From Escherichia coli (lineage in GTDB: Bacteria; Pseudomonadota; Gammaproteobacteria; Enterobacterales; Enterobacteriaceae), in the NCBI RefSeq assembly GCF_050920415.1, contig NZ_CP169309.1: DNA of 64,000 bases; one strand, given 5' to 3'. The notes beneath the pieces were generated by a model. The model was not told the DNA's origin. It worked only from the letters and a program-made list of their open reading frames with translations, and searched no databases. Made by a program: the position numbers and the translations under genes. Numbering within the stretch: the stretch's first letter is position 1; each line of letters opens with the position of its first letter. Below, piece after piece: positions 6,228 to 28,892 of the stretch.

Positions 6228-6234
6228 ATCGTCC

Positions 6235-7205: not shown

Positions 7206-7216
7206 ACATCCCCCTT

Positions 7217-7570: not shown

Positions 7571-7581
7571 AGCGCCTCCCG

Positions 7582-7977: not shown

Positions 7978-8018
7978 GGACTCCTCCACAGAGAGAAAAT
8001 GGCCCCGAAGGGCCATGA

Positions 8019-9044
8019 TTACGCCAGTTGTACGGACACGAACTCATCAGGGTCAGCCAGCAGCATCAGCGGTGCTGACTGAATCATGGTGAACTCACGC
8101 GCCGGATCGCCGGTGGTCACCCAGTTTTTCGGGTAACGGGCAGAGGCGTTAATGCCTTCGCGCTGTGCGTCCGCATCCTGAATGCAGCCATAGGTGCGCA
8201 GACCGCGTGCCTGAGTGTTACCCAGCACCATCGTGTTGTCCGGCAGGAAGTTCTTTTTGACGCCGTTTTCCACGTACTGTCCGGAATACACGACGATGGC
8301 CACATCGCCATACATCCCCTTATAGGACACCGCTTTGCCCAGGTCTTTCACCGCTGTCTCCAGCTCGGAATTAGAGCCACGACGGGTATCCAGCTTCTCC
8401 CTGACGGCTTTGAAGGAACGGAACAGCGCCCAGCCTTTCGGATCGAACACGATGATATTCACCACACCGCTGGCGTTCAGCGCGTAGGCTTCGATATCGT
8501 CGGTCGGGTCATACGTGGACTTGTCACGCTTGCTCCACTCCGTGCCGCCGGACTGCGTGATGTTATTCTCCTCACTGCGGCCCATATCCACCTCAACCGG
8601 ATCGAAGGCTTCACCGGTCATGGTGTATTTGCCCTTAAGCACGGCAGAAACTGCCTGCATCTCTTCGACCTGAGCAATGGCCAGCTCTTCGTCACGCATG
8701 TTCTGCATGATGATGCGACGGCGGCGGTAAGCCGGGTCCGCCAGATTCTGCGGATCTTCATCCGGCAGGCGACGCAGGGTCATCTGCGGATTCACTTCAT
8801 GCTTCGGCTTGACATATCCCGGCGTAAATTCAGAGGTGGAGCCGCCACGGGAACGGATAACCTCACCGGAAACAATCGGCGAAACGTACAGCGCCATGTT
8901 TACCAGTCCCGGAATTTGTGAGAGATAGACTTTCTCCGTGGTGAAGGGATAGCTCTCACGGAAAAAGAGACGCAGAAACAGCGGATCAAACTTAAATTTC
9001 TGCTCATTTGCCGCCAGCAGTTGGGCGGTTGTGTACATCGACAT
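8019..9044 (-). CDS. E: major capsid protein E (lambda gpE-like)
   Basis: Track ORF 341 aa MSMYTTAQLLAANEQKFKFDPLFLRLFFRESYPF... Confidence 0.95.
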   Translation of the reverse strand: MSMYTTAQLLAANEQKFKFDPLFLRLFFRESYPFTTEKVYLSQIPGLVNMALYVSPIVSGEVIRSRGGSTSEFTPGYVKPKHEVNPQMTLRRLPDEDPQNLADPAYRRRRIIMQNMRDEELAIAQVEEMQAVSAVLKGKYTMTGEAFDPVEVDMGRSEENNITQSGGTEWSKRDKSTYDPTDDIEAYALNASGVVNIIVFDPKGWALFRSFKAVREKLDTRRGSNSELETAVKDLGKAVSYKGMYGDVAIVVYSGQYVENGVKKNFLPDNTMVLGNTQARGLRTYGCIQDADAQREGINASARYPKNWVTTGDPAREFTMIQSAPLMLLADPDEFVSVQLA

Positions 9045-9100
9045 AAAAAAATCCCGTAAAAAAAAGCCGCACAGGCGGCCTTTAGTGATGAAGGGTAAAG

Positions 9101-9433
9101 TTAAACGATGCTGATTGCCGTTCCGGCAAACGCGGTCCGTTTTTTCGTCTCGTCGCTGGCAGCCTCCGGCCAGAGCACATCCTCATAACGGAACGTGCCG
9201 GACTTGTAGAACGTCAGCGTGGTGCTGGTCTGGTCAGCAGCAACCGCAAGAATGCCAACGGCAGCACCGTCGGTGGTGCCATCCCACGCAACCAGCTTAC
9301 GGCTGGAGGTGTCCAGCATCAGCGGGGTCATTGCAGGCGCTTTCGCACTCAATCCGCCGGGCGCGGTTGCGGTATGAGCCGGGTCACTGTTGCCCAGCGG
9401 CTGGTAATGGGTAAAGGTTTCTTTGCTCGTCAT
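9101..9433 (-). CDS. D: head decoration protein D (lambda gpD-like)
   Basis: Track ORF 9101-9439; start at second Met gives 110 aa [27 protein letters not shown]... Confidence 0.9.
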
Positions 9434-9442
9434 AAACATCCC

Positions 9443-10742
9443 TTACACTGGTGTGTTCAGCAAATCGTTAACGGCATCAGATGCCGGGTTACCTGCAGCC
9501 AGCGGTGCCGGTGCCCCCTGCATCAGACGATCCAGCGCAGTGTCACTGCGCGCCTGTGCACTCTGTGGTGCTGCGGCCAGAATGCGGCGGGCCGTTTCCA
9601 CGGTCATACCGGGGGTTTCTGCCAGCACGCGTGCCTGTTCTTCGCGTCCGTGAGCCTCCTCACAGTTGAGGATCCCCATAATGCGACTGTTTTCTGCCGC
9701 AACCGCTGCGGTGATCTGCGCGTTCACGTCCGGCTGCGCCGCGCTGGCGTTTTCGCCCTCCGTCGCTGGCACCACGTCAGTAACGTCAGCCTGCGAAGCA
9801 GTGGCTGAAACAGTTGTTGATTGAGTCTCTTTGGTCATTCGCCCTCCTGAGAGACGGGATTTACGTGCATCCAGTGCATCACGCATGACGGTGATCGCAT
9901 CGGTGCTGTTAACAAGTTCATCAGCCAGTCCGGCATCAATGGCCTCCTGACCGCTGTACACTGCAGCCTCGGTATCCAGCACAGCCTGCACGGACAGGCC
10001 GGTATATGCCGACACCTTCTGCGCAAACATCTGGCGGGTTGCGTCCATCCGGGACTGCAGTGTCTCCCGGACGTCATCCGGAAGATGGCTGTAGGGGTTG
10101 CCATCCACCTTATGGCTGCCGCTGTAAATCAGCGTGATTTCCACACCCTGTTTCTCCAGCGCAGCACCGTAATTACTGTGAGCCATCATGACGCCGATGG
10201 AGCCTGTCCGGGCGGTCTGCGTGACCAGACGCCGGGAGGCGGCACTGGCAAGCAGCTGACCTGCACTGCAGTTCATGTCGTTGGCCAGCGCCCATACCGG
10301 TTTTATGTCACGCACACGGGCGATGATGTCAGCGCAGTCAAATGCCCCCGCCACCATCCCGCCGGGCGTGTCCATATCGAGCAGAATGCCGTCCACCATC
10401 GGATCGCTGGCAGCCTGTTGCAGACGGGCGATAATGCCGTTGTAACCGGTCATCCCCGAATACGGCTGCAGCGCCCGCGTCCGGCTGACCAGCGTGCCGG
10501 AAACCGGCAGCACGGCGATGCCGTTCATGACCTGATAACTGCGGGCCTGTCGTGGTCCGTCATCATCACCGGATAACGCCAGCGTCGCGGGTGTCTCCGG
10601 GGCAGTCAGGCTGTCACCGGACACCGCATCTGTCAGGCGGCTGATCCCAAGCTGGCCTGCAAGCGCACAAAAGAAAACCCGCGCATAGGCGGGTTCAAGC
10701 ATCAGCGGCTCATTAAAGGCCATACTGGCAATATGCGGGAGA

Positions 10743-10762
<20 letters not shown>
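9443..10762 (-). CDS. C: head maturation protease/scaffold C (lambda gpC-like; Nu3 scaffold expected nested in-frame in its 3' part)
   Basis: Track ORF 9443-10897; product from the in-frame GTG at ~10760-10762 is 439 aa (VTAELRNLPHIASMAFNEPLMLEPAYARVFF...), overlapping the portal gene end as in lambda. Confidence 0.85.
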
Positions 10763-14443
<3,681 letters not shown>

Positions 14444-14469
<26 letters not shown>

Positions 14470-14989
14470 TCAGCAACCCCGGTATCAGTTCATCCAGCGC
14501 GGCTGCTTTGTTCATGGCTTTGATGATATCCCGTTTCAGGAAATCAACATGTCGGTTTTCCAGTTCCGGAAAACGCCGCTGCACCGACAGGGGGATCCCG
14601 TCGAGAATACTGGCAATTTCACCTGCGATCCGCGACAGCACGAAAGTACAGAATGCGGTTTCCACCACTTCAGCGGAGTCTCTGGCATTTTTCAGCTCCT
14701 GTGCGTCGGCCTGCGCACGCGTAAGTCGATGGCGTTCGTACTCAATAGTCCCTGGCTGGAGATCTGTCTCGCTGGCCTGCCGCAGTTCTTCAACTTCCCG
14801 GCGCAGCTTTTCGTTCTCAATTTCAGCATCCCTTTCGGCATACCATTTTATGACGGCGGCAGAATCATAAAGCACCTCATTACCCTTGCCACCGCCTCGC
14901 AGAACGGGCATTCCCTGCTCCTGCCAGTTCTGAATGGTACGGATACTCGCACCGAAAATATCAGCCAGCTGCTTTTTGTTGACTTCCAT
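14444..14989 (-). CDS. nu1: terminase small subunit Nu1 (lambda gpNu1-like)
   Basis: Track ORF 181 aa MEVNKKQLADIFGASIRTIQNWQEQGMPVLRGGGKGNE... (winged-HTH N-terminus). Confidence 0.95.
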
Positions 14990-14999
14990 TGTTCATTCC

Positions 15000-15200
15000 A
15001 CGGACAAAAACAGAGAAAGGAAACGACAGAGGCCAAAAAGCTCGCTTTCAGCACCTGTCGTTTCCTTTCTTTTCAGAGGGTATTTTAAATAAAAACATTA
15101 AGTTATGACGAAGAAGAACGGAAACGCCTTAAACCGGAAAATTTTCATAAATAGCGAAACCCCGCGAGGTCGCCGCCCCGTAACCTGTCGGATCGCCGGA
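15000..15200 (-). other. cos: cos site (cosB-cosN-cosQ); 12-nt cohesive-end sequence GGGCGGCGACCT present as reverse complement at ~15167-15178
   Basis: Reverse complement of 15001-15200 matches the lambda cos region as I recall it (GGGCGGCGACCTCGCGGG...TTTATGAAAATTTTCCGGTTTAAGGCGTTTCC...; other side ...CGGGTCCTTTCCGGCGATCCGACAGGTTACG); sits immediately upstream of Nu1. Confidence 0.8.
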
Positions 15201-15377
15201 AAGGACCCGCAAAATGATAATAATTATCATCTACATGTCACAACGTGCATCTACGCCATCAAACCACGTCAAATAATCAATTATGACGCAGGTATCGTAT
15301 TAATTGATCCGCATCAACTTAACGTAAAAACAACTTCAGACAATACAAATCAGCGACACTGAATACGGGGCAACCTC

Positions 15378-15572
15378 ATGTCAACGAAGAACAGAACCCG
15401 CAGAACAACAACCCGCAACATCCGCTTTCCTAACCAAATGATTGAACAAATTAACATCGCTCTTGATCAAAAAGGGTCCGGGAATTTCTCAGCCTGGGTC
15501 ATTGAAGCCTGCCGTCGGAGGCTAACGTCAGAAAAGAGAGCATATACATCAATTAAAAGTGATGAAGAATGA
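15378..15572 (+). CDS. ylcI: DUF3950-family small protein (DLP12 YlcI-like)
   Basis: Track ORF 64 aa MSTKNRTRRTTTRNIRFPNQMIEQINIALDQKGSGNFSAWVIEACRRRL...; recalled as YlcI-like, ribbon-helix-helix-like. Confidence 0.6.
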   Translation: MSTKNRTRRTTTRNIRFPNQMIEQINIALDQKGSGNFSAWVIEACRRRLTSEKRAYTSIKSDEE

Positions 15573-15736
15573 ACATCCCGCGTTCTTCCCTCCGAACAGG
15601 ACGATATTGTAAATTCACTTAATTACGAGGGCATTGCAGTAATTGAGTTGCAGTTTTACCACTTTCCTGACAGTGACAGACTGCGTGTTGGCTCTGTCAC
15701 AGGTTAAGTAGTTTGAATGATTAGCAGTTATGGTGA

Positions 15737-15943
15737 TCAGTCAACCACCAGGGAATAATCCTTCATATTATTATCGTGCTTCACCAACGCTGCCTCAATT
15801 GCCCTGAATGCTTCCAGAGACACCTTATGTTCTATACATGCAATTACAACATCAGGGTAACTCATAGAAATGGTGCTATTAAGCATATTTTTTACACGAA
15901 TCAGATCCACGGAGGGATCATCAGCAGATTGTTCTTTATTCAT
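15737..15943 (-). CDS. ybcW: hypothetical protein (DLP12 YbcW-like)
   Basis: Track ORF 68 aa [40 protein letters not shown]... Confidence 0.6.
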
Positions 15944-16186
15944 TTTGTCGCTCCATGCGCTTGCTCTTCATCTAGCGGTTAAAATATTACTTCAAATCTT
16001 TCTGTATGAAGATTTGAGCACGTTGGCCTTACATACATCTGTCGGTTGTATTTCCCTCCAGAATGCCAGCAGGACCGCACTTTGTTACACAACCAATACT
16101 ATTAATTGAAAACATTCCTAATATTTGACATAAATCATCAACAAAACACAAAGAGGTCAGACCAGATTGAAACGATAAAAACGATA

Positions 16187-16639
16187 ATGCAAACTACGCG
16201 CCCTCGTATCACATGGAAGGTTTTACCAATGGCTCAGGTTGCCATTTTTAAAGAAATATTCGATCAAGTGCGAAAAGATTTAAACTGTGAATTGTTTTAT
16301 TCTGAACTAAAACGTCACAATGTCTCACATTATATTTACTATCTAGCCACAGATAATATTCACATTGTGTTAGAAAACGATAACACTGTGTTAATAAAAG
16401 GACTTAAAAAGGTTGTAAATGTTAAATTCTCAAGAAATACGCATCTTATAGAAACGTCCTTTGATAGGTTGAAATCAAGAGAAATCACATTTCAGCAATA
16501 CAGGGAAAATCTTGCTAAAGCAGGAGTTTTCCGATGGGTTACAAATATCCACGAACATAAAAGATATTACTATACCTTTGATAATTCATTACTATTTACT
16601 GAGAGCATTCAGAACACTACACAAATCTTTCCACGCTAA
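16187..16639 (+). CDS. ybcV: DUF1398-family protein (DLP12 YbcV-like)
   Basis: Track ORF 16106-16639; start chosen at internal Met [32 protein letters not shown]... Confidence 0.6.
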
Positions 16640-16929
16640 ATCATAACGTCCGGTTTCTTCCGTGTCAGCACCGGGGCGTTGGCATAATGCAATACGTGTA
16701 CGCGCTAAACCCTGTGTGCATCGTTTTTAATTATTCCCGGACACTCCCGCAGAGAAGTTCCCCGTCAGGGCTGTGGACATAGTTAATCCGGGAATACAAT
16801 GACGATTCATCGCACCTGACATACATTAATAAATATTAACAATATGAAATTTCAACTCATTGTTTAGGGTTTGTTTAATTTTCTACACATACGATTCTGC
16901 GAACTTCAAAAAGCATCGGGAATAACACC

Positions 16930-17223
16930 ATGAAAAAAATGCTACTCGCTACTGCGCTGGCCCTGCTTATTACAGGATGTGCTCAACAGACGTTTACTGT
17001 TCAAAACAAACAGACAGCAGTAGCACCAAAGGAAACCATCACCCATCATTTCTTCGTTTCTGGAATTGGGCAGAAGAAAACTGTCGATGCAGCCAAAATT
17101 TGTGGCGGCGCAGAAAATGTTGTTAAAACAGAAACCCAGCAAACATTCGTAAATGGATTGCTCGGTTTTATTACTTTAGGCATTTATACTCCGCTGGAAG
17201 CGCGTGTGTATTGCTCAAAATAA
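16930..17223 (+). CDS. bor: Bor lipoprotein (serum-resistance lysogenic conversion protein)
   Basis: Track ORF 97 aa MKKMLLATALALLITGCAQQTFTVQNKQTAVAPKET...; lipobox LITGC; opposite strand to late genes as in lambda. Confidence 0.85.
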   Translation: MKKMLLATALALLITGCAQQTFTVQNKQTAVAPKETITHHFFVSGIGQKKTVDAAKICGGAENVVKTETQQTFVNGLLGFITLGIYTPLEARVYCSK

Positions 17224-17254
17224 TTGCATGAGTTGCCCATCGATATGGTCAGCT

Positions 17255-17716
17255 CTATCTGCACTGCTCATTAATATACTTCTGGGTTCCTTCCAGTTGT
17301 TTTTGCATAGTGATCAGCCTCTCTCTGAGGGTGAAATAATCCCGTTCAGCGGTGTCTGCCAGTCGGGGGGAGGCTGCATTATCCACGCCGGAGGCGGTGG
17401 TGGCTTCACGCACTGACTGACAGACTGCTTTGATGTGCAACCGACGACGACCAGCGGCAACATCATCACGCAGAGCATCATTTTCAGCTTTCGCATCAGC
17501 TAACTCCTTCGTGTATTTTGCATCGAGCGCAGCAACATCACGCTGACGCATCTGCATGTCAGTAATTGCCGCGTTCGCCAGCTTCAGTTCTCTGGCATTT
17601 TTGTCGCGCTGGGCTTTGTAGGTAATGGCGTTATCACGGTAATGATTAACAGCCCATGACAGGCAGACGATGATGCAGATAACCAGAGCGGAGATAATCG
17701 CGGTTACTCTGTTCAT
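17255..17716 (-). CDS. Rz: spanin inner-membrane subunit Rz (i-spanin)
   Basis: Track ORF 17255-17728; contains [39 protein letters not shown]...; lambda Rz-like. Confidence 0.9.
17314..17496 (-). CDS. Rz1: spanin outer-membrane lipoprotein subunit Rz1 (o-spanin), embedded in Rz in the +1 frame
   Basis: Track ORF 60 aa [46 protein letters not shown]...; lipobox VVGC and Pro-rich segment. Confidence 0.85.
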
Positions 17717-18210
17717 TGCTGACCCCACAAACAGATTTCACGCTCAATCTCACGACGAGTCATGAGACCTTTCCATTGCTTACCGCCAGCATATGTCCAG
17801 CGACGTAGCTGATCACATGCGCCTTTGATATCGCCCTGGTTTATTTTGCGAAGAAGCGTCGATGTTCTGAAATTGCCAGCACCCACGTTGTAAACGAATG
17901 AGTAAAGAGCGCCGCGCATTGTTTCCGGTATATCGACTTTGATGTACGGGTTAATTTGTCTGGCGACCGTGGCAAGGTCTTTATTCAGGAGGGCTTTGCA
18001 TTCTGCTTTGGTATACGTTTTACCGAGCATGATGTCTTTTCCTGTATGCCCGTGACATACAGTCCATACACCAACAATATCTTTGTATGGTATGTAGCTG
18101 ACACCTTCCAGACCATCGTTACCACTTGGGCCAGTGATTAACACTGATGCTATAGCAATTGCTCCGCCACCAATAGCAGCAGCAACGGCTTTTCGTAATG
18201 ATGGAGGCAT
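17713..18210 (-). CDS. R: SAR endolysin (phage-21 R / DLP12 RrrD-type lysozyme)
   Basis: Track ORF 165 aa [44 protein letters not shown]...; N-terminal Gly/Ala-rich signal-arrest-release helix followed by a T4-lysozyme-like catalytic region. Confidence 0.85.
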
Positions 18211-18425
18211 TATTCACCTCTCGCAGCCTTGCGCTTATCTTCTTTAATCTTGAAATAAAGGTTTGTCAGGTACGTCAGCAGGCCAAATACCAGGCTACCC
18301 AGCACACCTATTGCTGCCCACTGTGAGGGCGTGACTTTATCGAGCAGCTGTAAAAACCAGTAACCGGCACTACCTGCTGAGGTGCCATAGGCGACACCCG
18401 TTGTTAACTTATCCATGGATTTCAT
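18210..18425 (-). CDS. S: pinholin (phage-21 S21 / DLP12 EssD-type holin)
   Basis: Track ORF 71 aa [71 protein letters not shown]; two TM segments and a charged C-terminus. Confidence 0.8.
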
Positions 18426-18532
18426 AACCCCACCTCGCAGACAAAGCGGGTGTAAATTGAGGGAATACTACGAAACGTAACAGACTCGGAGTCAGTGAAT
18501 AACTCAGGTATTGGGTTATCAGCTAATATCGA

Positions 18533-18570
18533 GACTCAAAAAATGGAAAAACCCGCTCGACGGCGGGTTT
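18533..18570 (-). terminator. putative rho-independent terminator on the late-gene strand, upstream of S
   Basis: Minus strand reads AAACCCGCCGTCGAGCGGGTTT followed by TTCCATTTTTTGAG (GC-rich stem plus T-run). Confidence 0.45.
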
Positions 18571-18998
18571 AAGCTGTGTGACGAAGTAACCACTCTTAAC
18601 AGCATAACCAATTTTTTACGTACGTAAACCACTAAATGATATTTGCGAGAATGCTACCGAGTATTGAAAACACCACTACAAATACATAAGCAAATCTCAA
18701 CAAATAACCAACAAATAATTTCCAGTGTTATTTTTAGCCGATTTAAATTGAACCTTCAAATTATAGAGCACTTATAAATAACAGCCGTTAATATAAATTG
18801 GCTAATAGATTTATTTTTATTCAGCCAAGAGCTATAAATAGGATTCGATAGAAAAAAGTTCAGATAAAAATAGAGATCTACTTCACAAATCAAACGAGAA
18901 ACCAAAACTTACATCTTGAAATAATCACATTGATTAGATGAATATTTATCGCGCAGTGACATCATTTTTTAATAATAGTTCAAAAAAAAGGGCTCACG

Positions 18999-20096
18999 AT
19001 GAAAAAATTAACAGTGGCAATTTCTGCTGTAGCTGCATCAGTACTGATGGCGATGTCTGCTCAGGCAGCTGAAATTTATAATAAAGACAGTAACAAGCTG
19101 GATCTGTACGGGAAAGTTAATGCTAAGCACTACTTCTCCTCTAATGATGCAGATGATGGTGATACTACTTATGCCCGTCTTGGCTTCAAAGGTGAAACCC
19201 AAATCAACGATCAGCTGACTGGTTTCGGTCAGTGGGAATATGAATTCAAAGGCAACCGCGCTGAATCTCAAGGTTCCTCCAAAGACAAAACCCGTCTTGC
19301 ATTTGCAGGCCTGAAATTCGGTGACTACGGCTCAATCGATTACGGCCGTAACTACGGTGTAGCATACGACATCGGTGCGTGGACTGACGTTCTGCCAGAA
19401 TTCGGTGGCGATACCTGGACCCAAACAGATGTGTTCATGACTGGTCGTACCACTGGTGTTGCAACCTATCGTAACAACGACTTCTTTGGTCTGGTTGATG
19501 GTCTGAACTTTGCTGCTCAGTACCAAGGCAAAAACGATCGTAGCGATTTCGATAACTACACTGAAGGTAACGGTGATGGCTTCGGTTTCTCTGCTACCTA
19601 TGAATACGAAGGATTCGGTATCGGTGCAACTTATGCGAAATCTGATCGTACCGACACTCAAGTTAATGCAGGGAAAGTTCTTCCTGAAGTATTTGCTTCC
19701 GGTAAAAATGCAGAAGTTTGGGCCGCAGGTCTGAAATATGACGCTAACAACATTTACCTGGCCACTACCTATTCTGAAACCCAGAATATGACTGTATTTG
19801 CTGATCACTTCGTTGCTAATAAAGCTCAAAACTTCGAAGCTGTTGCACAATATCAGTTCGATTTCGGTCTGCGTCCGTCCGTTGCTTACCTGCAATCTAA
19901 AGGTAAGGATCTTGGAGTATGGGGCGATCAGGACTTAGTCAAATATGTTGATGTAGGTGCAACCTATTACTTCAACAAAAATATGTCTACTTTCGTTGAT
20001 TACAAAATCAACCTGCTTGACAAAAATGACTTCACTAAAGCACTCGGTGTAAGCACTGATGACATCGTTGCTGTAGGTCTGGTTTACCAGTTCTAA
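18999..20096 (+). CDS. nmpC: outer membrane porin (NmpC/Lc-type general porin), apparently intact
   Basis: Track ORF 365 aa [46 protein letters not shown]...VGLVYQF; signal peptide and C-terminal aromatic residue typical of OmpC-family porins; lies between Q and S on the opposite strand as in DLP12/PA-2. Confidence 0.9.
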
Positions 20097-20104
20097 TCTG
20101 ATTA

Positions 20105-20146
20105 CGAAAAAGATATGTTGCGGGAGGCTTTGCCTCCCCAACATAT
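20105..20146 (-). terminator. putative late terminator tR' (minus strand), also usable as convergent terminator for nmpC
   Basis: Palindrome ATATGTTGGGGAGGC-AAAG-CCTCCCGCAACATAT followed on the minus strand by CTTTTTCG; ~100 nt downstream of a promoter-like sequence after Q. Confidence 0.45.
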
Positions 20147-20233
20147 AAGTGGCTCCCTCAAGCCACTTCCTTTAGGAGCACAACCTTGCTTCTAACTATA
20201 TAAACCTTCTGTTATATATTACCCTTTATTTTT

Positions 20234-20259
20234 GGGGGCGTTGCAACGCCCCATTTTTA
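20234..20259 (+). terminator. putative rho-independent terminator on the plus strand downstream of nmpC
   Basis: GGGGCGTTGCAACGCCCC followed by ATTTTTAA. Confidence 0.5.
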
Positions 20260-20285
20260 ATAACTTTTAGTAAACAACTGGCATA

Positions 20286-20669
20286 TTAATTAGAGTTATT
20301 AACAACGATATCCATCTCTAACCGGATATCTAATGCCATTAACATCCCTTCAATTATACCCTCAGCCTTCTGTAACCTTTTCCCGATATAACCATCAGAG
20401 CAGCAATGCTTACCTGCCAGTGACATGAATGTCATACCGACTACATAATAATCTACTAATAAATCGTGCAAATCGCTGTTGTTCTTTTTCAGACGGGCCA
20501 TGCACCCGCAAATGATCATCGCGTCATCGTCACAACATTGCGGGCGAGATTTTACTTTTGAAGTAATTAATCCCTTAAAACCGGCGGCAATGGACGACCA
20601 GGTCACATCTTCATGATTATTAGCCGCCCACGCTCCCCAACGCTCAAGAACCATCTGAATATCACGCAT
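20286..20669 (-). CDS. Q: late-gene antiterminator Q (phage-82 / DLP12 QuuD type)
   Basis: Track ORF 20286-20684; contains [34 protein letters not shown]...[18 protein letters not shown]... (127 aa from this Met); Cys cluster consistent with a zinc-binding Q. Confidence 0.8.
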
Positions 20670-20751
20670 CAACTTACTCCACAAAAATCAGACCAGAACG
20701 CCAATTACAAGCAAAAATCAACAAAATAGTATTAGTTGATTGTTATCTCTG

Positions 20752-20892
20752 ACTTCATACTCCTGCTCCTGTCAGGGTTTTGGCGTAATTCTTCAGTATC
20801 CGGTAATCGGTCAAAACAGAACCAGGAAAACGATATAAGCGCAGGCGCACCCAGCGGCGGCGAAGACGCTCTGCCATATAAGACTCAAACAT
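20752..20892 (-). CDS. ylcG: small DUF3927-like protein (DLP12 YlcG-like)
   Basis: Manual minus-strand translation [45 protein letters not shown]; start overlaps the rusA stop; below track size cutoff. Confidence 0.5.
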
Positions 20893-21254
20893 CATTCATT
20901 CCCCATTTCGGTGATGGTCAGTTCCAGCCTCCCACCTTTGGTAACAGGCATCTTCACAACGCGGTAATCAACGACCTGAGCATCATCCAGCCAGAAACCT
21001 GCTTTGGTGAGTGCGTCAAAAGCGGCCTTTTGCAGATTATCCAGGTCACGGCGACGGCGATCCGGCATGTGGCACTCAATACGGATTTTCACTGGCATAG
21101 CCAGGCCGATATCCAGCATTGCGTTTTTAATGATTCGGGTGACGTTATCGCGGTATGCCTGCCCTTCTGCGCTGATGTGTGTGCGCCCGCGATTATGGCG
21201 GTAATAGCGGTTATTGCTCGGAGGCCAGGGTAGTGTGATGTGGTAAGTATTCAC
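20892..21254 (-). CDS. rusA: Holliday junction resolvase RusA
   Basis: Track ORF 20892-21317; 120 aa from the GTG at 21252-21254 ([37 protein letters not shown]...); start overlaps the ybcO stop. Confidence 0.85.
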
Positions 21255-21541
21255 GCCTTGATTACCCCCTCTTTCAGCCAGATAACCTGCGTTCTCGCCA
21301 TACCTTCCAGCGCGCATTCTTTTGCGTACTCAGCATCGACAAAATGCGTGCGGCGGTCGATTTCGTCGTGACAGGCAGAACAGGCAATGGTGGCAATAAG
21401 GTCTGGCGGTTTAATACCGGTGCCGCACAATCCAGCCAGCCGGATATGTGCCAGTACAGACGTTTCAGGGTTGCCATTACATACGCCAGTGATTCTTACC
21501 TGGCATTCCCGACCACGCGCTGCTTTTCTCAAATCAGCCAT
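21251..21541 (-). CDS. ybcO: DUF1364-family protein (DLP12 YbcO-like, Cys-rich putative nuclease)
   Basis: Track ORF 21251-21580; start chosen at [35 protein letters not shown]... Confidence 0.7.
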
Positions 21542-21704
21542 GATTCCTCCTTGCTGCCAGTCGCAACCATTTTTTATCAACCAGGCTAGCGGTATATCCG
21601 AGCAGTGTTGGTATTTCGGATGGCTTCAGCTCAGGCTTACGCTTACGACGATTTGGTACTCTGTAGATGTGTCCGTTCATGACACGAATAAGCGGTGTAG
21701 CCAT
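21534..21704 (-). CDS. ninE: NinE-like small protein
   Basis: Manual translation [56 protein letters not shown]; ATG overlaps the ybcN stop (TAATG); below track size cutoff. Confidence 0.6.
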   Translation of the reverse strand: MATPLIRVMNGHIYRVPNRRKRKPELKPSEIPTLLGYTASLVDKKWLRLAARRNHG

Positions 21705-22159
21705 TACGCCTCCTGCTTGTCGCGCAGCAGCTGGAACTCGCAGCTCTGCGGAATAGTCAGGTGGCAGCCAATATTCATCGCCCAGGCTTCAACCTTACAC
21801 AGGAAGACATACATCTCTCCGGTATCAAGATCGGAAGTATGGCGTAACGACTGGATAGTAGTGATTTCGCCGGTTACGACATCAACCAGGTCCTTGGTTT
21901 CATAACCGAGGTATGTGTGTTTGAGAGCATCTTTTACCCAAGCTGGAGTGGCGAACGTTTTACCCCTGCTGATGAGGTATTCACTGATTTCGCTGTACCA
22001 CATGTGGCTGAGTGCATTCTGGGAAAGACTGCGTTTCTCACGCCACGGTTTAAGCACCATGCGAAAGCATTTGCCTTCCTCCAGATAAGGCTGGATCTGC
22101 TGGCCGATAGCGGTGAAGTTACCACGATGCAATTTGATGCCGTCTTGTGGGAGGTTCAC
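21704..22159 (-). CDS. ybcN: NinB-position protein (DLP12 YbcN-like)
   Basis: Track ORF 151 aa, GTG start preceded by [47 protein letters not shown]... Confidence 0.75.
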
Positions 22160-22193
22160 GCTTCACCTCCGCAGAGGTCAAACGCTGGATGCA

Positions 22194-22278
22194 AAAAATC
22201 GCAGGTGCATCTCTGCATCTGTGAAGGGAGAAGAGAGTTTGGATTGTATGTGCGCATAAACGTCCCCGTTTAGCGCAG
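22194..22278. repeat. ~85-bp direct repeat, copy A (partner at 24128-24211, ~93% identical)
   Basis: AAAAATCGCAGGTGCATCTCTGCATCTGTGAAGGGAGAAGAGAGTTTGGATTGTATGTGCGCATAAACGTCCCCGTTTAGCGCA; contains imperfect hairpin GCGCATAAACG-TCCCC-GTTTAGCGC. Confidence 0.75.
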
Positions 22279-22353
22279 AAGTCACCGGAGTTGTTCAAGC
22301 TCCAATGGCATGATTATGGCTGGTTGATTATTGGAAATCAAATGTGCTGAAAA

Positions 22354-22863
22354 TTAGTCTGCCAAGTCTTCCTCAGTCGCAACTGGGTAATTCCAAATAT
22401 CAAAAAAAGCTATAGCCTCCTGCCATTTGCTCCATAAGTTATCAAGTACTTGTGTAGGTTCCGTACTTTTAAAAACAGAATCAGCCGCATCACCGTTATG
22501 AACTTCCTCGTACAGTTCCATTATTAGCAGATTAACAAAGTACTGTTTCAACATTAATGCCTGATTACCTTCTTTCTGCTGGCTATCCTGCTTGATGAGC
22601 TCCATCGCCCGTACTAGGCACCTGATGATATCCGCTGCATCATTAACGCTCCATTCAGATCCGCGCTTATCTTTAGCTGATGAATTGGCTCTCTCAGCGC
22701 AAGCCTTTAAAGACTCATAAAGGTAAACTCTATTTTGTAGCTGCAGCGCTTTTTTTGACGTGCACCAACTTGCAAGCGCCGACCCCGCTGCGGCTAATGT
22801 GCCAAACGCAGAAATGCCTGCTGCTATTGCACTTAAGTCGGCACTGTCAAAGTTCCACATCAT
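22354..22863 (-). CDS. hypothetical protein with one N-terminal hydrophobic helix; no family recognised
   Basis: Track ORF 169 aa MMWNFDSADLSAIAAGISAFGTLAAAGSALASWCTSKK...; AT-rich upstream region; lies inside the repeat-bracketed cassette. Confidence 0.6.
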   Translation of the reverse strand: MMWNFDSADLSAIAAGISAFGTLAAAGSALASWCTSKKALQLQNRVYLYESLKACAERANSSAKDKRGSEWSVNDAADIIRCLVRAMELIKQDSQQKEGNQALMLKQYFVNLLIMELYEEVHNGDAADSVFKSTEPTQVLDNLWSKWQEAIAFFDIWNYPVATEEDLAD

Positions 22864-23036
22864 CGTTACACCTTATATAAACACCCCTCAGTAATATCCA
22901 ATAAGGTATGTGAACAATCAATATAATTTATATCCGTATCGGCACATAGCGATTTTAATGCTACTGATAATGGTATCTTTTAGATTATATCGTCCAGTTC
23001 CAGTACCCGTATTTTATGAAATGGACTCGCACATTA

Positions 23037-23078
23037 CCAAAAAAAATGCCAGCACTTCCGTCATCGCAGAATGCTGGC
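23037..23078 (-). terminator. putative rho-independent terminator downstream of the Bro-N-like gene
   Basis: Minus strand: GCCAGCA...TGCTGGC stem followed by ATTTTTTTTGG. Confidence 0.45.
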
Positions 23079-23098
23079 AGTATTTCTAACTAGTGACT

Positions 23099-23707
23099 TT
23101 ATTGCAACAGATTCTGACGGAAATATGGTAACACACGACTCCACTTATCATCCTGCCACGGTTGGAATTTTACATGCGCCGTTTCTCTGGCAAGGATTTC
23201 TCGCGCCCTGTTGAGTATCCGAGGATATTCTTGTTCGATTGAAGTGAATCTACCTGCTTCGCGATGCTCTGCGACCTGAAGAAGGGGCGTAACGTTCTGG
23301 CAGGCGGTTAACATCGTATCACTTGCTCGCCATAACCAGGCGAGTGTGCAAAGTTCGTTATCAGTGAATTGTTTTGTGATTGGGGATTGTTGAACTTCTC
23401 GATCGAGAATATCCAGAACCCAGCGGCGGAATTCTTTGGCCACAGGAGTACGAGCAAACATGGCGATCAAATGGGCTCCGCGAAGGCTAAATACTCGAGA
23501 CTCCTGCATTCCACGAGGGGTGGTCACTTTGACCACCCTTGTCATCATATCTGTGAATTCATCTGAGTGCCGAGAGTAAATGCGCTGAACTGCTTTATCG
23601 TCCGCATATTCCAGTGCTAAACCAACTTCAGTGGCAGTAAGCCAAATTCTGTTATTGTGGCAAATCGGGGTAAACGTCGTTTTGTGGAATGCTAATTGAG
23701 TAGTCAT
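23099..23707 (-). CDS. Bro-N / antirepressor-like domain protein
   Basis: Track ORF 202 aa MTTQLAFHKTTFTPICHNNRIWLTATEVGLALEYADDKAVQRIYSRHSDEFTD...; N-terminal region resembles Bro-N/KilA-N phage regulatory domains (pattern recognition only). Confidence 0.55.
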   Translation of the reverse strand: MTTQLAFHKTTFTPICHNNRIWLTATEVGLALEYADDKAVQRIYSRHSDEFTDMMTRVVKVTTPRGMQESRVFSLRGAHLIAMFARTPVAKEFRRWVLDILDREVQQSPITKQFTDNELCTLAWLWRASDTMLTACQNVTPLLQVAEHREAGRFTSIEQEYPRILNRAREILARETAHVKFQPWQDDKWSRVLPYFRQNLLQ

Positions 23708-23970
23708 AGTATCACCTCATCAGGTTAACCATCACCACCAACGACGCCAATCGACTGGTGGTGAACTGTGTAAGGTTGGCGTAACCGGCTACTCAAACCC
23801 GGCGCTTCCGAAGAAGCCCTCACACAGCCCACCATAATTTGGGCATAGCCGTGCTTAGCGCACAAAAAAACCGCTTAACGCGGTATGCGTTGAGTAGTAT
23901 CCCGGGACGCCAATCCCGTGTGCCGATTTTGCGGCAACGCACAGAATATAGCGCCGGATAAATCATGTCG

Positions 23971-24060
23971 TCAACCCCAGTAAATGGACACCATGATGAT
24001 CACAGCCATAGCTGCTACAACAGTTACAACTACCTCAGGCCAAAACATAACGATTTCCAT
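23971..24060 (-). CDS. candidate 29-aa hydrophobic micro-protein
   Basis: Manual translation MEIVMFWPEVVVTVVAAMAVIIMVSIYWG*, preceded by AGGTGA about 5 nt upstream; single predicted TM helix; below track size cutoff. Confidence 0.3.
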   Translation of the reverse strand: MEIVMFWPEVVVTVVAAMAVIIMVSIYWG

Positions 24061-24127
24061 ATCACCTTTAGCCGCCAGACGAATAGAGACTCCCAATTCT
24101 GGCTGTCGAAGTAAAACACCGAATGTA

Positions 24128-24211
24128 AAAAATCGTAGGTGCATTTCTGCATCTGTGAATGGAGATGAGAGTTTGGATTGTGTGTGCGCATAAACGTCCC
24201 CGTTTAGCGCA
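24128..24211. repeat. ~85-bp direct repeat, copy B (partner at 22194-22278)
   Basis: AAAAATCGTAGGTGCATTTCTGCATCTGTGAATGGAGATGAGAGTTTGGATTGTGTGTGCGCATAAACGTCCCCGTTTAGCGCA; about 6 mismatches versus copy A. Confidence 0.75.
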
Positions 24212-24519
24212 ACCCCACCACCGGGTGTTCAGGCCGACAGTAACTATATTATTCCCTACTGATTTTTGAAAATCAAAGGTCTTTATACGTCACACGAGAG
24301 CAAATATTTCCGAAGAAGAAACCTTTCGCCTTGAAAGGATAAAGAGTTCATTTCATAAATTGAAATATTCAATAAGAATATTGCAAAAAATGAAATTATT
24401 TACTAGCGAGTCTATCTAACTGATAATTATGAAGATTGTAAGCGGTAGCAATCACCCGCATACACATTGAACAGGATTTAATACAAAACGTCTTAAATTG
24501 TCCGTAAGGAATAGCACGA

Positions 24520-26022
24520 ATGACTCAAACTCCTCTATTACTTGCAATCATATTTTTATTGGTTGTTCTTGTTCTTTATATAGCTGCAATCAAACGCATC
24601 AAAAAAATACAATTAGAATTAAGTGATAGCAATCAAAAAAATGAAGAATACAAATCTCGCTTTGCAGATTATTTTAATGTAGAAGAAGAATGTAAGAAGC
24701 TTATTGAGAAAACAGAGCAAGAATGCTCCATAATAAAAGAAGAATCCCTAAAAGTAAAAGAAAATGCCAATAATGAACTAACAAACACCATTGAAAAAAT
24801 GGATGGTATCAATAAACAAATCCAAGAGCTAAGAAGAACTTATAAAGAGAAGAAAGAAATATATGATAAACTAGTAAGGCAAATTTCTATTTATTCAGAA
24901 GATGTTGAGCTAGCCGAACTAGGATTTTACGAACCTCATTTTAATTTTGAAGATTCAGAGCAATTTAAAAACAAAATAAAATCCATCAGGGATGAACAGA
25001 AATTAATGCTGCGGGATAAAACCCACTCTGGCGCAGTATATTGTACAACCCAATGGACTGTTGAAGGCTCTCGAGCAGAGGGTAAAAAAATGACAGACAG
25101 AAATATCAGGCTAACTACTAGAGCATTTAATAATGAATGTGATGCTGCAATTAGCAATTGCACGTGGAAAAACATCACTAAAATGGAAGAACGCATCACA
25201 AAGGCATTTGAGGCCATAAATAAACTAAACGAGCAAAATCACATATATATAAACACTAAATACCTCAATAAAAAACTTGAGGAATTGTGGCTTACCCATG
25301 AATATCGTGAGCAAAAACAGAAAGAAAAAGAAGAACAGGCAGAAATAAGGGCACAAATGAGAGAGGAGGAGCGTGCACAACGAGAAATAGAAAAGGCCAT
25401 GCAAGACGCAGAGGCAGAAGAGCGCCGTTATAAAAAAGCAATTGAAGCTGCAAGAAAGGAAATGGAAAAAGTTACTGGTGACATGAAGCAGCGCCTCGAA
25501 AATCGCATTGCCGAACTAGAACAGAGTTTGTCGCAGGCTGAATCAAAGCATCAAAGAGCATTATCCATGGCACAACAAACCAAACAAGGTCATGTTTATA
25601 TTATTTCGAACATAGGTTCTTTTGGGGAGAATGTTTATAAAATAGGCATGACACGACGTCTTGATCCGCAAGACCGTGTAAATGAGCTCGGTGATGCATC
25701 TGTTCCTTTTATTTTTGATGTACATGCCATGATTTATTCGGAGGACGCTCCATCATTAGAAAAAAAACTACATGATGTCTTCGATAAAAAGAGAGTCAAT
25801 CTTGTAAATCGTAGAAAAGAGTTTTTCTATGTTACTCTGGATGAGATCAAAGAAGCTGTTAAAAAACACTCTGATTCAGAAATTGAATTTATTGAGACAG
25901 CAGTCGCAAAAGACTTTAATGAGTCATTGGCTATTCGTAATCATGAAAATAAAAAAAGTGACAACAGCAACTCATCAATTATACCTGAGCGAAAAACCCC
26001 AGAGTTTGCAGATGCAATTTAA
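24520..26022 (+). CDS. membrane-anchored coiled-coil protein with C-terminal GIY-YIG/T5orf172-like domain (DUF4041-like architecture); candidate defence moron
   Basis: Track ORF 500 aa: N-terminal TM helix (LLLAIIFLLVVLVLYIAAI), ~300 residues Lys/Glu-rich coiled coil, then GHVYIISNIGSFGENVYKIGMTRRLDPQDRVNELG...EKKLHDVF...RKEFFYV; RBS AAGGAA; strongly AT-rich; opposite strand to flanking phage genes. Confidence 0.8.
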   Translation: MTQTPLLLAIIFLLVVLVLYIAAIKRIKKIQLELSDSNQKNEEYKSRFADYFNVEEECKKLIEKTEQECSIIKEESLKVKENANNELTNTIEKMDGINKQIQELRRTYKEKKEIYDKLVRQISIYSEDVELAELGFYEPHFNFEDSEQFKNKIKSIRDEQKLMLRDKTHSGAVYCTTQWTVEGSRAEGKKMTDRNIRLTTRAFNNECDAAISNCTWKNITKMEERITKAFEAINKLNEQNHIYINTKYLNKKLEELWLTHEYREQKQKEKEEQAEIRAQMREEERAQREIEKAMQDAEAEERRYKKAIEAARKEMEKVTGDMKQRLENRIAELEQSLSQAESKHQRALSMAQQTKQGHVYIISNIGSFGENVYKIGMTRRLDPQDRVNELGDASVPFIFDVHAMIYSEDAPSLEKKLHDVFDKKRVNLVNRRKEFFYVTLDEIKEAVKKHSDSEIEFIETAVAKDFNESLAIRNHENKKSDNSNSSIIPERKTPEFADAI

Positions 26023-26270
26023 TTAATTTGTAGTAGCAATAAAGCAGGCATCGTTGAGAATATTTTGTCAGCGATGCTTACTTCTCTAACAAAAACGGTG
26101 ATTACCAACGAACTAACGGACTTCAGGTAATCATAAGACAAATGGAACGACTCTCCGGTGATTAGATCCCTGCAATAACAGTAATTTTCTACTAACTGAA
26201 AAATCTTTAACTGCCGCTCCTATTTCTAAGCTGACTGCTAGATTACATGGTGTGTTACCGATGAAAACCG

Positions 26271-26573
26271 TCACAGCAAGTTTAAGTTCATATCTCCATA
26301 CACTGCCAACACTCGTTTCATCGCGGCACTCTGGCGACACTCCTTGAAAATCAGATTCGTGCTCACCTTTCCTTCCCGTTCTTCCCTGGTAGCGAACCGG
26401 TAATACACCGTTCGCCAGACCTTACCATCAACGACCAAGATTCCTGCCCGTGCCATTTTAGCCGCAGCCTGATTTATACTGGTTACTGTTGCGCCTGTTA
26501 CCGCAGCAACGTCCTGCGCACAGAAGCTCTTATGCGTCCCCAGGTAATGAATAATTGCCTCTTTGCCCGTCAT
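26271..26573 (-). CDS. ren: Ren protein (lambda Ren-like)
   Basis: Track ORF 100 aa MTGKEAIIHYLGTHKSFCAQDVAAVTGATVTSINQAAAKMARAGILVVDGKVW... Confidence 0.85.
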   Translation of the reverse strand: MTGKEAIIHYLGTHKSFCAQDVAAVTGATVTSINQAAAKMARAGILVVDGKVWRTVYYRFATREEREGKVSTNLIFKECRQSAAMKRVLAVYGDMNLNLL

Positions 26574-27271
26574 ACAGTTGCTCCTTTCAGTCCGAACTTC
26601 GCTTTGATTTCTGCGATCTTCGCCAGAGCCTGTGCACGATTTAGAGGTCTACCGCCCATGACAGGAAGTTGTTTTACTGGTTCAGGTATCGCCTCACCAC
26701 GGTTAATTCGCGCGGTCATACAAGTCAGTTCATCGGCAGCCTTGCGCCGTAATTCCGCATCAGTAAGCGCATTGGCCCGCATGTTCTGATACAGGTTGGT
26801 AACCAGCCAGTAGTGCGCGTTTGATTTCCACGGATAAGACTCTGCATCTGGATACAGGCCACGTTTCCGGCAATACTCGTAAACCATATCAACCAGCTCG
26901 CTGGCGTTTGGCAGCCCGGCGGTAACGGATGCTTCTTCCCGGCACCAGGCAACAAACTGCCCGGGTGATGGCAGGAATGGTCGATTCTGCCGACGGGCTA
27001 CGCGCATTCCTGCGTCAACCTGTTCCATCGTGGTGATCCCGTTTTCCCGGAAAGCCAGAACCCACTGGCGGCGGATTTCGTTCAGTTCGTTCTGGTCCCG
27101 GTTAGCCAGGCTCGCCGGGAAAGTTGCCAGTAACTGGCTGAACACACCATTGATGATCTGCGCTACCTGTTGTACCTGCGGCTTTTCGTCGTACTGTTCC
27201 GGCATGTTGTTGGCGATCCGGCGCATCTGCTCACGGTCAAAGTTAACCATCTGTGCGGCGATGTTTTTCAT
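26570..27271 (-). CDS. P: replication protein P (DnaB helicase loader, lambda P-like)
   Basis: Track ORF 233 aa MKNIAAQMVNFDREQMRRIANNMPEQYDEKPQVQQVAQIINGVF... Confidence 0.9.
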   Translation of the reverse strand: MKNIAAQMVNFDREQMRRIANNMPEQYDEKPQVQQVAQIINGVFSQLLATFPASLANRDQNELNEIRRQWVLAFRENGITTMEQVDAGMRVARRQNRPFLPSPGQFVAWCREEASVTAGLPNASELVDMVYEYCRKRGLYPDAESYPWKSNAHYWLVTNLYQNMRANALTDAELRRKAADELTCMTARINRGEAIPEPVKQLPVMGGRPLNRAQALAKIAEIKAKFGLKGATV

Positions 27272-28287
27272 AAATCCACCCCGTAAATCCAGTCAGTGTT
27301 TGTCAGGTCGAGTTTTGATTTTCCGGCTATCACGCCAGCCTGTTGCTTGTTACGGTTGATTTCGAGTTGGGTCCACTTGTCGCGGAGTTTGGCCGGACTT
27401 AGCACGTTACCGGACCAGAAGTTGTCCTGGCATGCCCAGCGGAACAGCACGCACATGTCGCGGTGGTTACGGCCGTCACGTTCACGCATCAGGCGGATAT
27501 CGTTAGCCCACCCTGCAAAATTCGGTTTTCTGGCTGATGGCGCGATGGTCTTCACCATGTCAAACATCCACTCTGCGGCGGTCAGGTCTTCTGCTGTCCC
27601 CCACCTGCTGCCGCTCTGAATTGCAGCATCTGGTTTCTCCACAGGAAGATCGTTTTCTGGTTGGTCAGAGGATTCGCCAGAATTCTCGGACGAAAAAGGT
27701 TTTATATTGTCTTTTGTTAGTTTGTCTTTTGTGTTTACCTGATTCGGGTAAGTGCCTTTACCTGATTTGGGTAAACTTTTCTTACCTGATTCAGGTAAAT
27801 TTACCTCTTTCAGGTAAACTTTATTTTTCTTACCTGATTCGGGTAATGTTGACCATTCACTGACCACATTATTAATGCCGATATTCCGCCCGCTCTGAAT
27901 AAAAATCCCACGCTTTACCAGAACACTTTTTGCAGCAGAACACTTGTGCGGCAATATCCCGGTCAACTCGGAAAGTTGCTCGTTGCTCACCCAATCCAGT
28001 TTTTTATTAAAGCCATATGTTTTGCGCATGACAGCCAGGAAGACCAGAAGCTGGTGCTGTGTTAATCCGGCCAGCATCACAGCTTCCAGCAACTCATTTG
28101 CAATGCGCGTATAACCATCATCGAGATCTGCCACGCGCGGCTCCTTTTGTGCCGCATCCGGCACTGGAAAATTGAATATCTCAGCAGTGTTTGCCATAAT
28201 TCCTCCCGCAATGAGTGTGTTACGATTTGCACCTGAAAGTCGGTTCTGTTCCCGCAGACCGACTTTCGCCATTTCTGAACCTGTCAT
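27268..28287 (-). CDS. O: replication initiator O (lambdoid O-like; origin iterons inside the gene)
   Basis: Track ORF 339 aa (start uncertain; internal Met at MANTAEIFNF...); C-terminal part resembles the lambda O P-interaction domain; iterons at 27735-27846 lie within the coding sequence. Confidence 0.8.
   Translation of the reverse strand: MTGSEMAKVGLREQNRLSGANRNTLIAGGIMANTAEIFNFPVPDAAQKEPRVADLDDGYTRIANELLEAVMLAGLTQHQLLVFLAVMRKTYGFNKKLDWVSNEQLSELTGILPHKCSAAKSVLVKRGIFIQSGRNIGINNVVSEWSTLPESGKKNKVYLKEVNLPESGKKSLPKSGKGTYPNQVNTKDKLTKDNIKPFSSENSGESSDQPENDLPVEKPDAAIQSGSRWGTAEDLTAAEWMFDMVKTIAPSARKPNFAGWANDIRLMRERDGRNHRDMCVLFRWACQDNFWSGNVLSPAKLRDKWTQLEINRNKQQAGVIAGKSKLDLTNTDWIYGVDL
27698..27846. 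repeat. ori: replication origin: five palindromic iterons (TACCTGATTCGGGTA-like) plus adjacent AT-rich segment
   Basis: Copies at ~27736-27750, 27759-27773, 27783-27797, 27802-27816, 27831-27845; AT-rich stretch 27698-27734 on the downstream side relative to O. Confidence 0.65.
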
Positions 28288-28823: not shown

Positions 28824-28892
28824 AATTGACTCCTTTAGTTTGAATTGACTGTTAAGTTGATTGCTTATTGTTAAAGAGCGTGAAATGGAAAT

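Follow-up and report, generated by a model that had tools for sequence, protein, structure and literature searches.

A four-gene lysis cassette in a prophage of Escherichia coli raises the question of how a holin and an endolysin resembling those of phage 21 come to be joined to the spanin genes of lambda, and whether that combination is a new one. The cassette lies in a 64,000-nucleotide stretch of DNA (contig NZ_CP169309.1), which is referred to here, at its full length, as the window.

Organization of the lysis cassette

Four overlapping reading frames, all on the minus strand, fill positions 17255..18425 in the open reading frame list of the window. The S start codon begins at 18425, and the Rz stop codon ends at 17255. 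An earlier note on this DNA had given 17255 and 18425 as the limits of the cassette, and these are exact, because all four reading frames are present at those ends; the strand, which is minus, had been left out. All four genes and their types had been named correctly in the note. The features of the cassette are as follows.

18425..18210, minus strand: S, EssD-type allele of the phage 21 S gene, 71 amino acids (open reading frame, PF04971)
18416..18210, minus strand: frame of the S68 pinholin, read from Met4, the second start in M-K-S-M
18210..17713, minus strand: R, SAR endolysin, GH24-type lysozyme, 165 amino acids (PF00959, identity to R21)
18189..18121, minus strand: SAR (signal-anchor-release) domain codons, R residues 8-30 (composition and hydropathy)
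17716..17255, minus strand: Rz, i-spanin, inner-membrane subunit, 153 amino acids from ATG (PF03245)
17496..17314, minus strand: Rz1, o-spanin lipoprotein, 60 amino acids, in the +1 frame inside Rz (PF06085)

The stop codon of S and the ATG of R share one base (TAATG), and the stop codon of R overlaps the ATG of Rz in the sequence ATGA (17716..17713). Rz was taken from the ATG at 17716; the mechanical open reading frame list extends it by four codons, to a GTG at 17728. PHROGs calls of holin, endolysin, and Rz-like spanin gave the same assignment as Pfam, and the Pfam E values of all four predicted proteins are far beyond chance.

Very probably, the four genes make up the late lysis cassette of a lambdoid prophage that is integrated at argU, the DLP12 site of E. 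coli, and the pinholin/SAR-endolysin pathway of phage 21 would act in it together with a lambda-type two-component spanin. The mode of action is drawn from near-identity to the proteins of phage 21 and lambda. Among all of the results, none spoke against this explanation.

S, a predicted pinholin

The S protein belongs to PF04971, 'Bacteriophage P21 holin S' (E value, 2e-35; 121 bits against a cut-off of 26), and is identical to the phage 21 protein, S21, at 61 of 71 residues. Its RefSeq accession, WP_000839596.1, designates the same protein as EssD of K-12. BLASTP yielded no alignment between S and lambda S, the family of which is PF05106. A forced global alignment of S with lambda S gave 26 identities in 62 positions, a value that is meaningless where BLASTP finds no significant local alignment.

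Hydropathy calculated on the sequence revealed two uncharged stretches in S, residues 7-25 and 36-54. The first is weakly hydrophobic and SAR-like, with a mean hydropathy of 0.59 and a Gly/Ala/Ser/Thr content of 63%. The second is more hydrophobic (mean, 1.72) and is followed by a basic C-terminal tail. Pinholins carry a G40-xxx-S44-xxx-G48 motif in their second transmembrane domain, and G40, S44, and G48 are all present in the 36-54 stretch of S. With about 70 residues, two predicted transmembrane stretches, and a charged C-terminal tail, S has the features of a class II holin.

The N terminus of S, MKSMDK, is the same as that of S21 and includes the dual start M1-K2-S3-M4. The full 71-codon frame from Met1 corresponds to the S71 antipinholin, with its extra lysine, and the start at Met4 corresponds to the S68 pinholin. 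The records of phages 21 and 434B annotate both S products and two ribosome-binding sites; in the GenBank record of phage 21, the reference given for the dual start of S is PMID 2019562. The window is 98.6% identical to 434B within S and 99.6% identical upstream of it. The predicted RNA fold of 18475..18385 places a hairpin over the Shine-Dalgarno region of S, yet its total energy was no better than that of shuffled sequences (z = -0.13).

Thus, the family assignment, the similarity to S21, the two uncharged stretches, and the dual start all bear out the earlier description of S as a 71-residue pinholin-type holin with two transmembrane segments. The pinholes made by S21-68 are small (about 2 nm); they depolarise the membrane and do not permit the passage of folded endolysin (PMC6139136). 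Pinhole formation, and its timing, are predicted for S, an allele that differs from S21 at 10 residues.

R, a SAR endolysin identical to that of phage 21

R was compared to the corresponding protein in the deposited phage 21 genome (OL657228), and the two were identical at 165 of 165 residues. R belongs to the phage lysozyme family PF00959 (E value, 1.3e-45). It also matched the R21 structures PDB 3HDE and 3HDF and the DLP12 RrrD structure 4ZPU, with E values down to 4e-112; the match to 3HDE (E value, 3.7e-112) covers R residues 1-165.

SAR domains are N-terminal, charge-free, weakly hydrophobic stretches that are rich in Gly, Ala, Ser, and Thr and follow one to three basic residues, and SAR endolysins have the lysozyme catalytic triad E-X8-D-X5-T (PMC9239132). 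Residues 8-30 of R are free of charge, have a mean Kyte-Doolittle hydropathy of 1.60, consist of Gly, Ala, Ser, or Thr at 65% of positions, and come just after R6 and K7. The catalytic triad is present as E35-X8-D44-X5-T50.

R has no similarity to lambda R (best BLASTP E value, 3.9). Forced global alignment of the two returned 36 identities in 131 positions, which is as meaningless as the corresponding figure for S, there being no significant local alignment by BLASTP. The identity to R21 and the stretch at residues 8-30 bear out the claim that R has an N-terminal SAR helix and is not the transglycosylase of lambda.

The earlier note had named one finding that would overturn its reading, namely, that R is a canonical cytoplasmic endolysin, which would leave the cytoplasm through the large holes of a canonical holin. 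The comparison gave the opposite, since R is the same as R21, the model SAR endolysin, residue for residue, and has the Gly/Ala-rich N-terminal stretch after two basic residues. Furthermore, S falls in the phage 21 holin family rather than in that of lambda S, and BLASTP detected no similarity of either S or R to its lambda counterpart. No point in support of a cytoplasmic enzyme was found, and there is practically no chance that this explanation is correct. The definitive test of a SAR endolysin is Sec-dependent export, inactive tethering, and release on depolarisation or by pinholin (PMC9239132). Export, tethering, and release would apply to the exact sequence of R only if the published work on R21 used the same sequence.

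A lambda-type Rz/Rz1 spanin

Rz and Rz1 belong to PF03245 (E value, 2.6e-54) and PF06085 (E value, 2.9e-20), respectively. Rz is identical to lambda Rz at 152 of 153 residues and to phage 21 Rz at 150 of 153, and Rz1 matches that of lambda at 59 of 60 residues and that of phage 21 at all 60. The Rz1 gene lies wholly within Rz, at an offset of 220 nucleotides, which puts it in the +1 frame [(17716-17496) mod 3 = 1].

Domains and cysteines have been described for lambda Rz (C99 and C152) and Rz1 (Cys20, C29, and a penta-proline) (PMC5295617). The Rz protein of the window has a strongly hydrophobic transmembrane domain at residues 4-23 (mean hydropathy, 2.71) and cysteines at positions 14, 18, 99, and 152. 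Rz1 has a VVGC lipobox with Cys20, C29, PPPPP at residues 32-36, and 10 prolines among 41 mature residues. The lambda-like character of Rz/Rz1, with the lipoprotein gene embedded in the +1 frame, was thus borne out by the identities, the lipobox, and the frame offset.

Studies of the lambda and phage 21 proteins have shown that the spanin is needed for disruption of the outer membrane, which occurs by membrane fusion (PMC6139136). A spanin role is likewise predicted for Rz and Rz1 of the window, which differ from the lambda proteins by at most one residue each and from those of phage 21 by at most three.

Two mosaic joints in the cassette

Comparison of the window with the phage 21 lysis region (OL657228) and with lambda (NC_001416) located two joints.

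17716..17713, minus strand: mosaic joint on comparison with lambda, at the ATGA in which the R stop codon overlaps the Rz start codon
18231..18212, minus strand: mosaic joint relative to phage 21, in the last ~20 nucleotides of S (mismatch density)

Homology to lambda detected with blastn starts at window position 17716, which corresponds to lambda position 45966 and is the A of the Rz ATG. It runs at 98.9% identity from there to at least 15500, the end of the stretch compared with lambda, and takes in Rz, Rz1, bor, and genes similar to ybcV and ybcW. In 50-nucleotide windows, identity to lambda was 24 to 60% upstream of 17716, values that represent alignment noise, and 96 to 100% downstream. 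Because lambda homology begins abruptly at the ATGA and continues at about 99% through bor and beyond, the module boundary that had been proposed inside the operon is real, and it falls exactly at the R/Rz overlap, where homology goes from none to 99 to 100%.

The earlier note had recognized a single boundary. The R/Rz joint stands, but a second joint, about 20 nucleotides before the S stop codon, had been missed. Nucleotide identity to phage 21 is 76.4% in S, 99.2% in R, 99.3% in Rz, and 93.2% in bor, with both flanks unrelated. There were 51 mismatches to phage 21 in 18417..18231 (50 in 18232..18425) and only 7 in the remainder up to the end of Rz; with 18231 included, there were 8 in the 977 nucleotides of 18231..17255. 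The contrast of 50/194 versus 8/977 is highly significant (Fisher P = 1.7e-33). Given this jump in mismatches near 18231, the second joint, seen in the comparison with phage 21, falls in the final ~20 nucleotides of S. In R and in the 5' half of Rz, the window is nearer to phage 21 than to K-12 DLP12 (96.6 to 97.6% nucleotide identity to the latter).

Taken by sequence, the cassette is a patchwork of an S gene of the EssD/DLP12 type, an R gene of the phage 21 type, Rz/Rz1 genes common to lambda and phage 21, and bor and downstream DNA of the lambda type, and its pieces appear as freely exchanging gene-sized modules. This is textbook lambdoid mosaicism, in which the joints coincide exactly with the edges of genes, one at the ATGA overlap and the other in the final codons of S. 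The exact positions of the two joints and the assignment of an allele to each gene are all that the present analysis adds.

Distribution of the pinholin/SAR-endolysin and spanin combination

The 1.6-kb block from S to bor is 100% identical in phage PhiR26_1. It is covered over at least 80% of its length in 35 phage records, among them phages 21 and 434, and in 1,877 of 5,426 complete E. coli genomes (about a third), in which the genes are annotated as essD, rrrD, rzpD, and bor. Aligned to phage 21, the whole S-to-bor block comes out in one piece. The lambda-type Rz/Rz1 genes are indeed paired with the phage 21-type genes, as had been claimed, but not in the sense of a hybrid, since phage 21 has the same Rz/Rz1. 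The combination is the canonical phage 21/DLP12 cassette, described decades ago, and the pairing is not new, because phage 21, 434B, K-12 DLP12, and the 1,877 E. coli genomes have it. That the pinholin/SAR-endolysin pathway combines freely with the lambda spanin was already evident from phage 21.

One explanation for the joint between S/R and Rz/Rz1 is a recent recombination of a phage-21-like with a lambda-like phage in the present lineage, which would make the cassette a novel chimera. The abrupt onset of lambda homology at the R/Rz ATGA, and its continuation at 99 to 100% through bor and 1.7 kb further, would fit such an event, as would the course of the phage 21 alignment, in which identity drops to 93% in bor and the DNA is then unrelated. 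However, phage 21 itself has the same Rz/Rz1 (458 of 461 nucleotides, with a score equal to that of lambda), the same R, and the same ATGA joint, and the joint is found likewise in 434B, in K-12 DLP12, and in the 35 phage records and 1,877 E. coli genomes. Only the flanks, namely, the S allele and the bor side, depart from phage 21. Since the R/Rz joint is common to phage 21, 434B, DLP12, and many genomes, it is old and widely inherited. A recent origin in this lineage is highly improbable, and the novel lambda-by-21 chimera was rejected because phage 21 carries the same Rz/Rz1.

Separate searches of phage records found S plus R DNA in 151 records, compared to 557 for Rz DNA. P22-like phages of Salmonella, such as ST104, SE1, and BTP1, have R but not the present S, and mEp460 and Stx1 phages have S but not the present R. 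To judge from these matches, the halves of the cassette assort independently in sequenced phages.

The second joint, together with the S-only and R-only matches, could suggest that different pinholin alleles are exchanged while the SAR endolysin stays constant, as a means of retuning the timing of lysis. In this prophage family, the intact antisense porin gene and the hairpin terminator, which lie between Q and S, might add a late read-through control that couples expression of a lysogenic-conversion gene to lysis. Both ideas are tentative and are unlikely to be correct. In itself, the cassette is an ordinary, well-studied four-gene set that is already known and common, and it matters little beyond correct annotation.

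The prophage and elements flanking the cassette

Positions 4..35711 of the window form one collinear match to positions 35713..1 of PhiR26_1, with 99.25% identity over 35.7 kb. The deposited PhiR26_1 genome is that of an isolated phage, for which the host is given as K-12 MG1655. In the part of the prophage that the window holds, the genes for replication, head, tail, and integrase are intact; the edge of the window falls inside the tail genes. The flanking features referred to below are as follows.

16930..17223, plus strand: bor, serum-resistance lipoprotein gene (PF06291; E value, 1.4e-30)
18570..18549, minus strand: terminator-like hairpin followed by a T-run, ~125 nucleotides upstream of S (pattern scan)
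20286..20669, minus strand: Q-type late antiterminator gene, quuD (PF06530; E value, 4e-53)
34531..35694: int (intD), next to tRNA-Arg(tct)
35710..35786: tRNA-Arg(tct), adjoining int at the prophage end

Beyond tRNA-Arg(tct) are the host fimZ/sfm genes, as read from an E. coli record collinear with the window at 99.5% identity. The gene order quuD-porin-essD-rrrD-rzpD-bor-ybcV-ybcW-nohD was found, with names taken from collinear E. coli records of 99.5% identity. By these markers, the integration site is the argU/DLP12 site.

The bor gene and the cassette are in convergent orientation. Although bor is not one of the lysis genes, it is part of the same lambda-like block. It is closer to lambda bor (94 of 97 amino acids; 99.0% of nucleotides) than to phage 21 bor (93.2% of nucleotides). 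The collinear records, 99.4 to 99.5% identical in this region, annotate quuD as antitermination protein Q, and quuD is the presumed activator of cassette transcription.

An intact porin gene (18999..20096; PF00267; E value, 1e-156) lies upstream of S on the opposite strand. The S allele and the porin may be related to phage PA-2, a relationship on which the present explanation does not draw; a literature search on phage PA-2, nmpC, and DLP12 returned no paper mentioning PA-2. The hairpin at 18570..18549 has a folding energy of -12 kcal/mol (z = -1.8), lies in a region that is 99.6% identical to K-12 DLP12, and may function as a terminator. A search for the late promoter (pR') with a sigma-70 consensus returned fewer hits than in shuffled sequence, and none of them was plausibly placed. 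A permissive Rfam scan of 15500..21000 returned no RNA family.

Proposed route of lysis and a possible host function

The pinholin/SAR pathway and the requirement for a spanin have been described for lambda and phage 21 (PMC6139136), and near-identity to those experimentally studied proteins is the ground on which the following route is proposed. After induction, Q would let late transcripts run from downstream of Q into S, R, and Rz/Rz1, passing the hairpin terminator and crossing the porin gene in the antisense direction. Translation of S, R, and Rz would be coupled through the TAATG and ATGA overlaps. S would be translated from both Met1 (S71, the antipinholin) and Met4 (S68, the pinholin), with both products building up in the inner membrane, while R would be exported by Sec and held tethered and inactive by its N-terminal, weakly hydrophobic SAR helix. 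When the programmed time is reached, S68 would make many small pinholes and the proton-motive force would collapse. The SAR helix would then leave the bilayer, and R would refold to an active lysozyme that degrades the murein. Finally, complexes of Rz, in the inner membrane, and Rz1, the lipoprotein of the outer membrane, would fuse the two membranes.

It has been proposed for K-12 DLP12 that the cassette is a domesticated remnant kept for host uses, such as cell-wall turnover and vesicle or biofilm phenotypes, and the same might be considered here. The defective DLP12 prophage of K-12 keeps an intact, transcribed essD-rrrD-rzpD/rzoD operon, which influences vesiculation (PMC7918800). The prophage of the window is at the same argU site, its S accession is that of EssD, and the cassette is as frequent among complete E. 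coli genomes as noted above. However, over 35.7 kb the prophage of the window is collinear with a phage deposited as an isolated genome, and in this visible part it has intact genes for replication, head, tail, and integrase. Because these 35.7 kb are intact and match a viable phage, a function for the host only appears less likely here than a role in phage lysis, and we consider domestication unlikely. The two roles are not mutually exclusive and could coexist.

Comparison with known phages and prophages

The R/Rz ATGA overlap and the embedded +1 Rz1 are the same in lambda as in the window. Rz, Rz1, and bor are nearly identical to their lambda counterparts, and nucleotide identity to lambda is about 99% over the next 1.7 kb downstream. 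In contrast, lambda S is a class I holin of 107 amino acids with three transmembrane domains, and lambda R is a soluble transglycosylase without a Pfam hit; neither has detectable similarity to S or R of the window. Lambda uses the large-hole pathway, as opposed to the pinholin/SAR pathway of phage 21 (PMC6139136).

Phage 21 (OL657228) is identical to the window in gene order, overlaps, and architecture, has the same MKSM dual start, and likewise has bor following on the opposite strand. It differs in the S allele (61 of 71 amino acids; 76.4% of nucleotides), its bor is 93% identical, and the DNA downstream of bor is unrelated. The DNA upstream of the cassette is also unrelated, with pR', a terminator, and two tRNAs in phage 21 and the porin gene in the window.

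DLP12 of K-12, with the order essD-rrrD(ybcS)-rzpD/rzoD-borD, occupies the same argU site. EssD is identical to S, the 1.6-kb block is about 98% identical, and the neighbours are the same as in the window (quuD, the porin gene nmpC, bor, ybcV, ybcW, and nohD). For R and the 5' half of Rz, DLP12 has a slightly divergent allele, at the 96.6 to 97.6% nucleotide identity given above, and its Rz start codon is GTG, whereas Rz of the window was taken from ATG. The nmpC gene of K-12 carries IS5, but the porin gene of the window is intact, and DLP12 is truncated after the small terminase gene, whereas the prophage of the window has intact head and tail genes.

Also close to the window is PhiR26_1 (PV340555), with its relatives (2G7b, ev243, Turner, and the PhiR series); the 1.6-kb cassette of PhiR26_1 is 100% identical. 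PhiR26_1 differs from the window by scattered substitutions only (262 mismatches and 6 gaps), and the window holds the integrated form, with host flanks.

Attachment site and accessory genes of the prophage

The direct adjacency of the integrase gene and the tRNA gene argU marks the attachment site of the prophage.
34531..35694, + strand, prophage integrase, directly adjoining argU
35710..35786, - strand, tRNA-Arg(tct) (argU)
The fimZ and sfm fimbrial genes of the host begin at about 36 kb in the window. The window begins within the tail-tip genes, so that the distal prophage end, which in the isolated phage PhiR26_1 carries J, lom, stf, and ompT, lies outside it.

The prophage carries three further genes noted here.
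10743..12344, intact portal gene
16106..16639, + strand, ybcV/lambda-p78-like open reading frame downstream of bor (DUF1398 in the RefSeq annotation)
24520..26022, + strand, PD-lambda-1/SNIPE defence gene (500 aa; PADLOC E = 1.9e-198)
The defence protein, the gene for which is flanked by ren and a rha-like gene, is composed of DUF4041 and a nuclease. Recent characterisation of this family describes a membrane-bound nuclease that cleaves phage DNA on entry (PMC13190303). The open reading frame downstream of bor shares ∼99% identity with the part of the lambda right arm whose RefSeq label is 'head protein'. PADLOC also matches it weakly, at E = 2.7e-4, with a model for type II restriction enzymes, but this hit is probably spurious.

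In an otherwise near-identical prophage of E. coli Z0117EC0116 (NZ_CP098192), the portal gene is interrupted by a ∼10.9-kb element (positions 26990..37878 of locus L004 from this strain). Because it codes for an integrase, a primase, SSB, a major capsid protein, a decoration protein, and a small terminase, this element resembles a capsid-forming satellite.

Interval between Q and S, and comparison with K-12

Two features lie between Q and S.
18549..18570, - strand (late-transcript strand), G+C-rich hairpin with a T-run to ∼18540 (-12 kcal/mol; z = -1.8)
18999..20096, + strand, intact nmpC/OmpD-like porin gene (365 aa; PF00267, E = 1e-156)
The hairpin, ∼125 nt upstream of S and followed by UUUUUCCAUUUUUU, may be a terminator that is overridden by Q. 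A 38-aa hypothetical open reading frame annotated across the hairpin in PhiR26_1 (window 18511..18627, + strand) is probably spurious.

The porin gene, which is oriented against late transcription, is intact here, whereas both K-12 DLP12 and phage 434B have an IS5 insertion in it. In a K-12-type genome (L006), S and bor are almost identical to those of the window, and 28 substitutions separate R plus the 5' half of Rz from the window sequence. The Rz start codon (window 17716) is ATG in the window, lambda, and phage 21, but GTG in K-12 rzpD.
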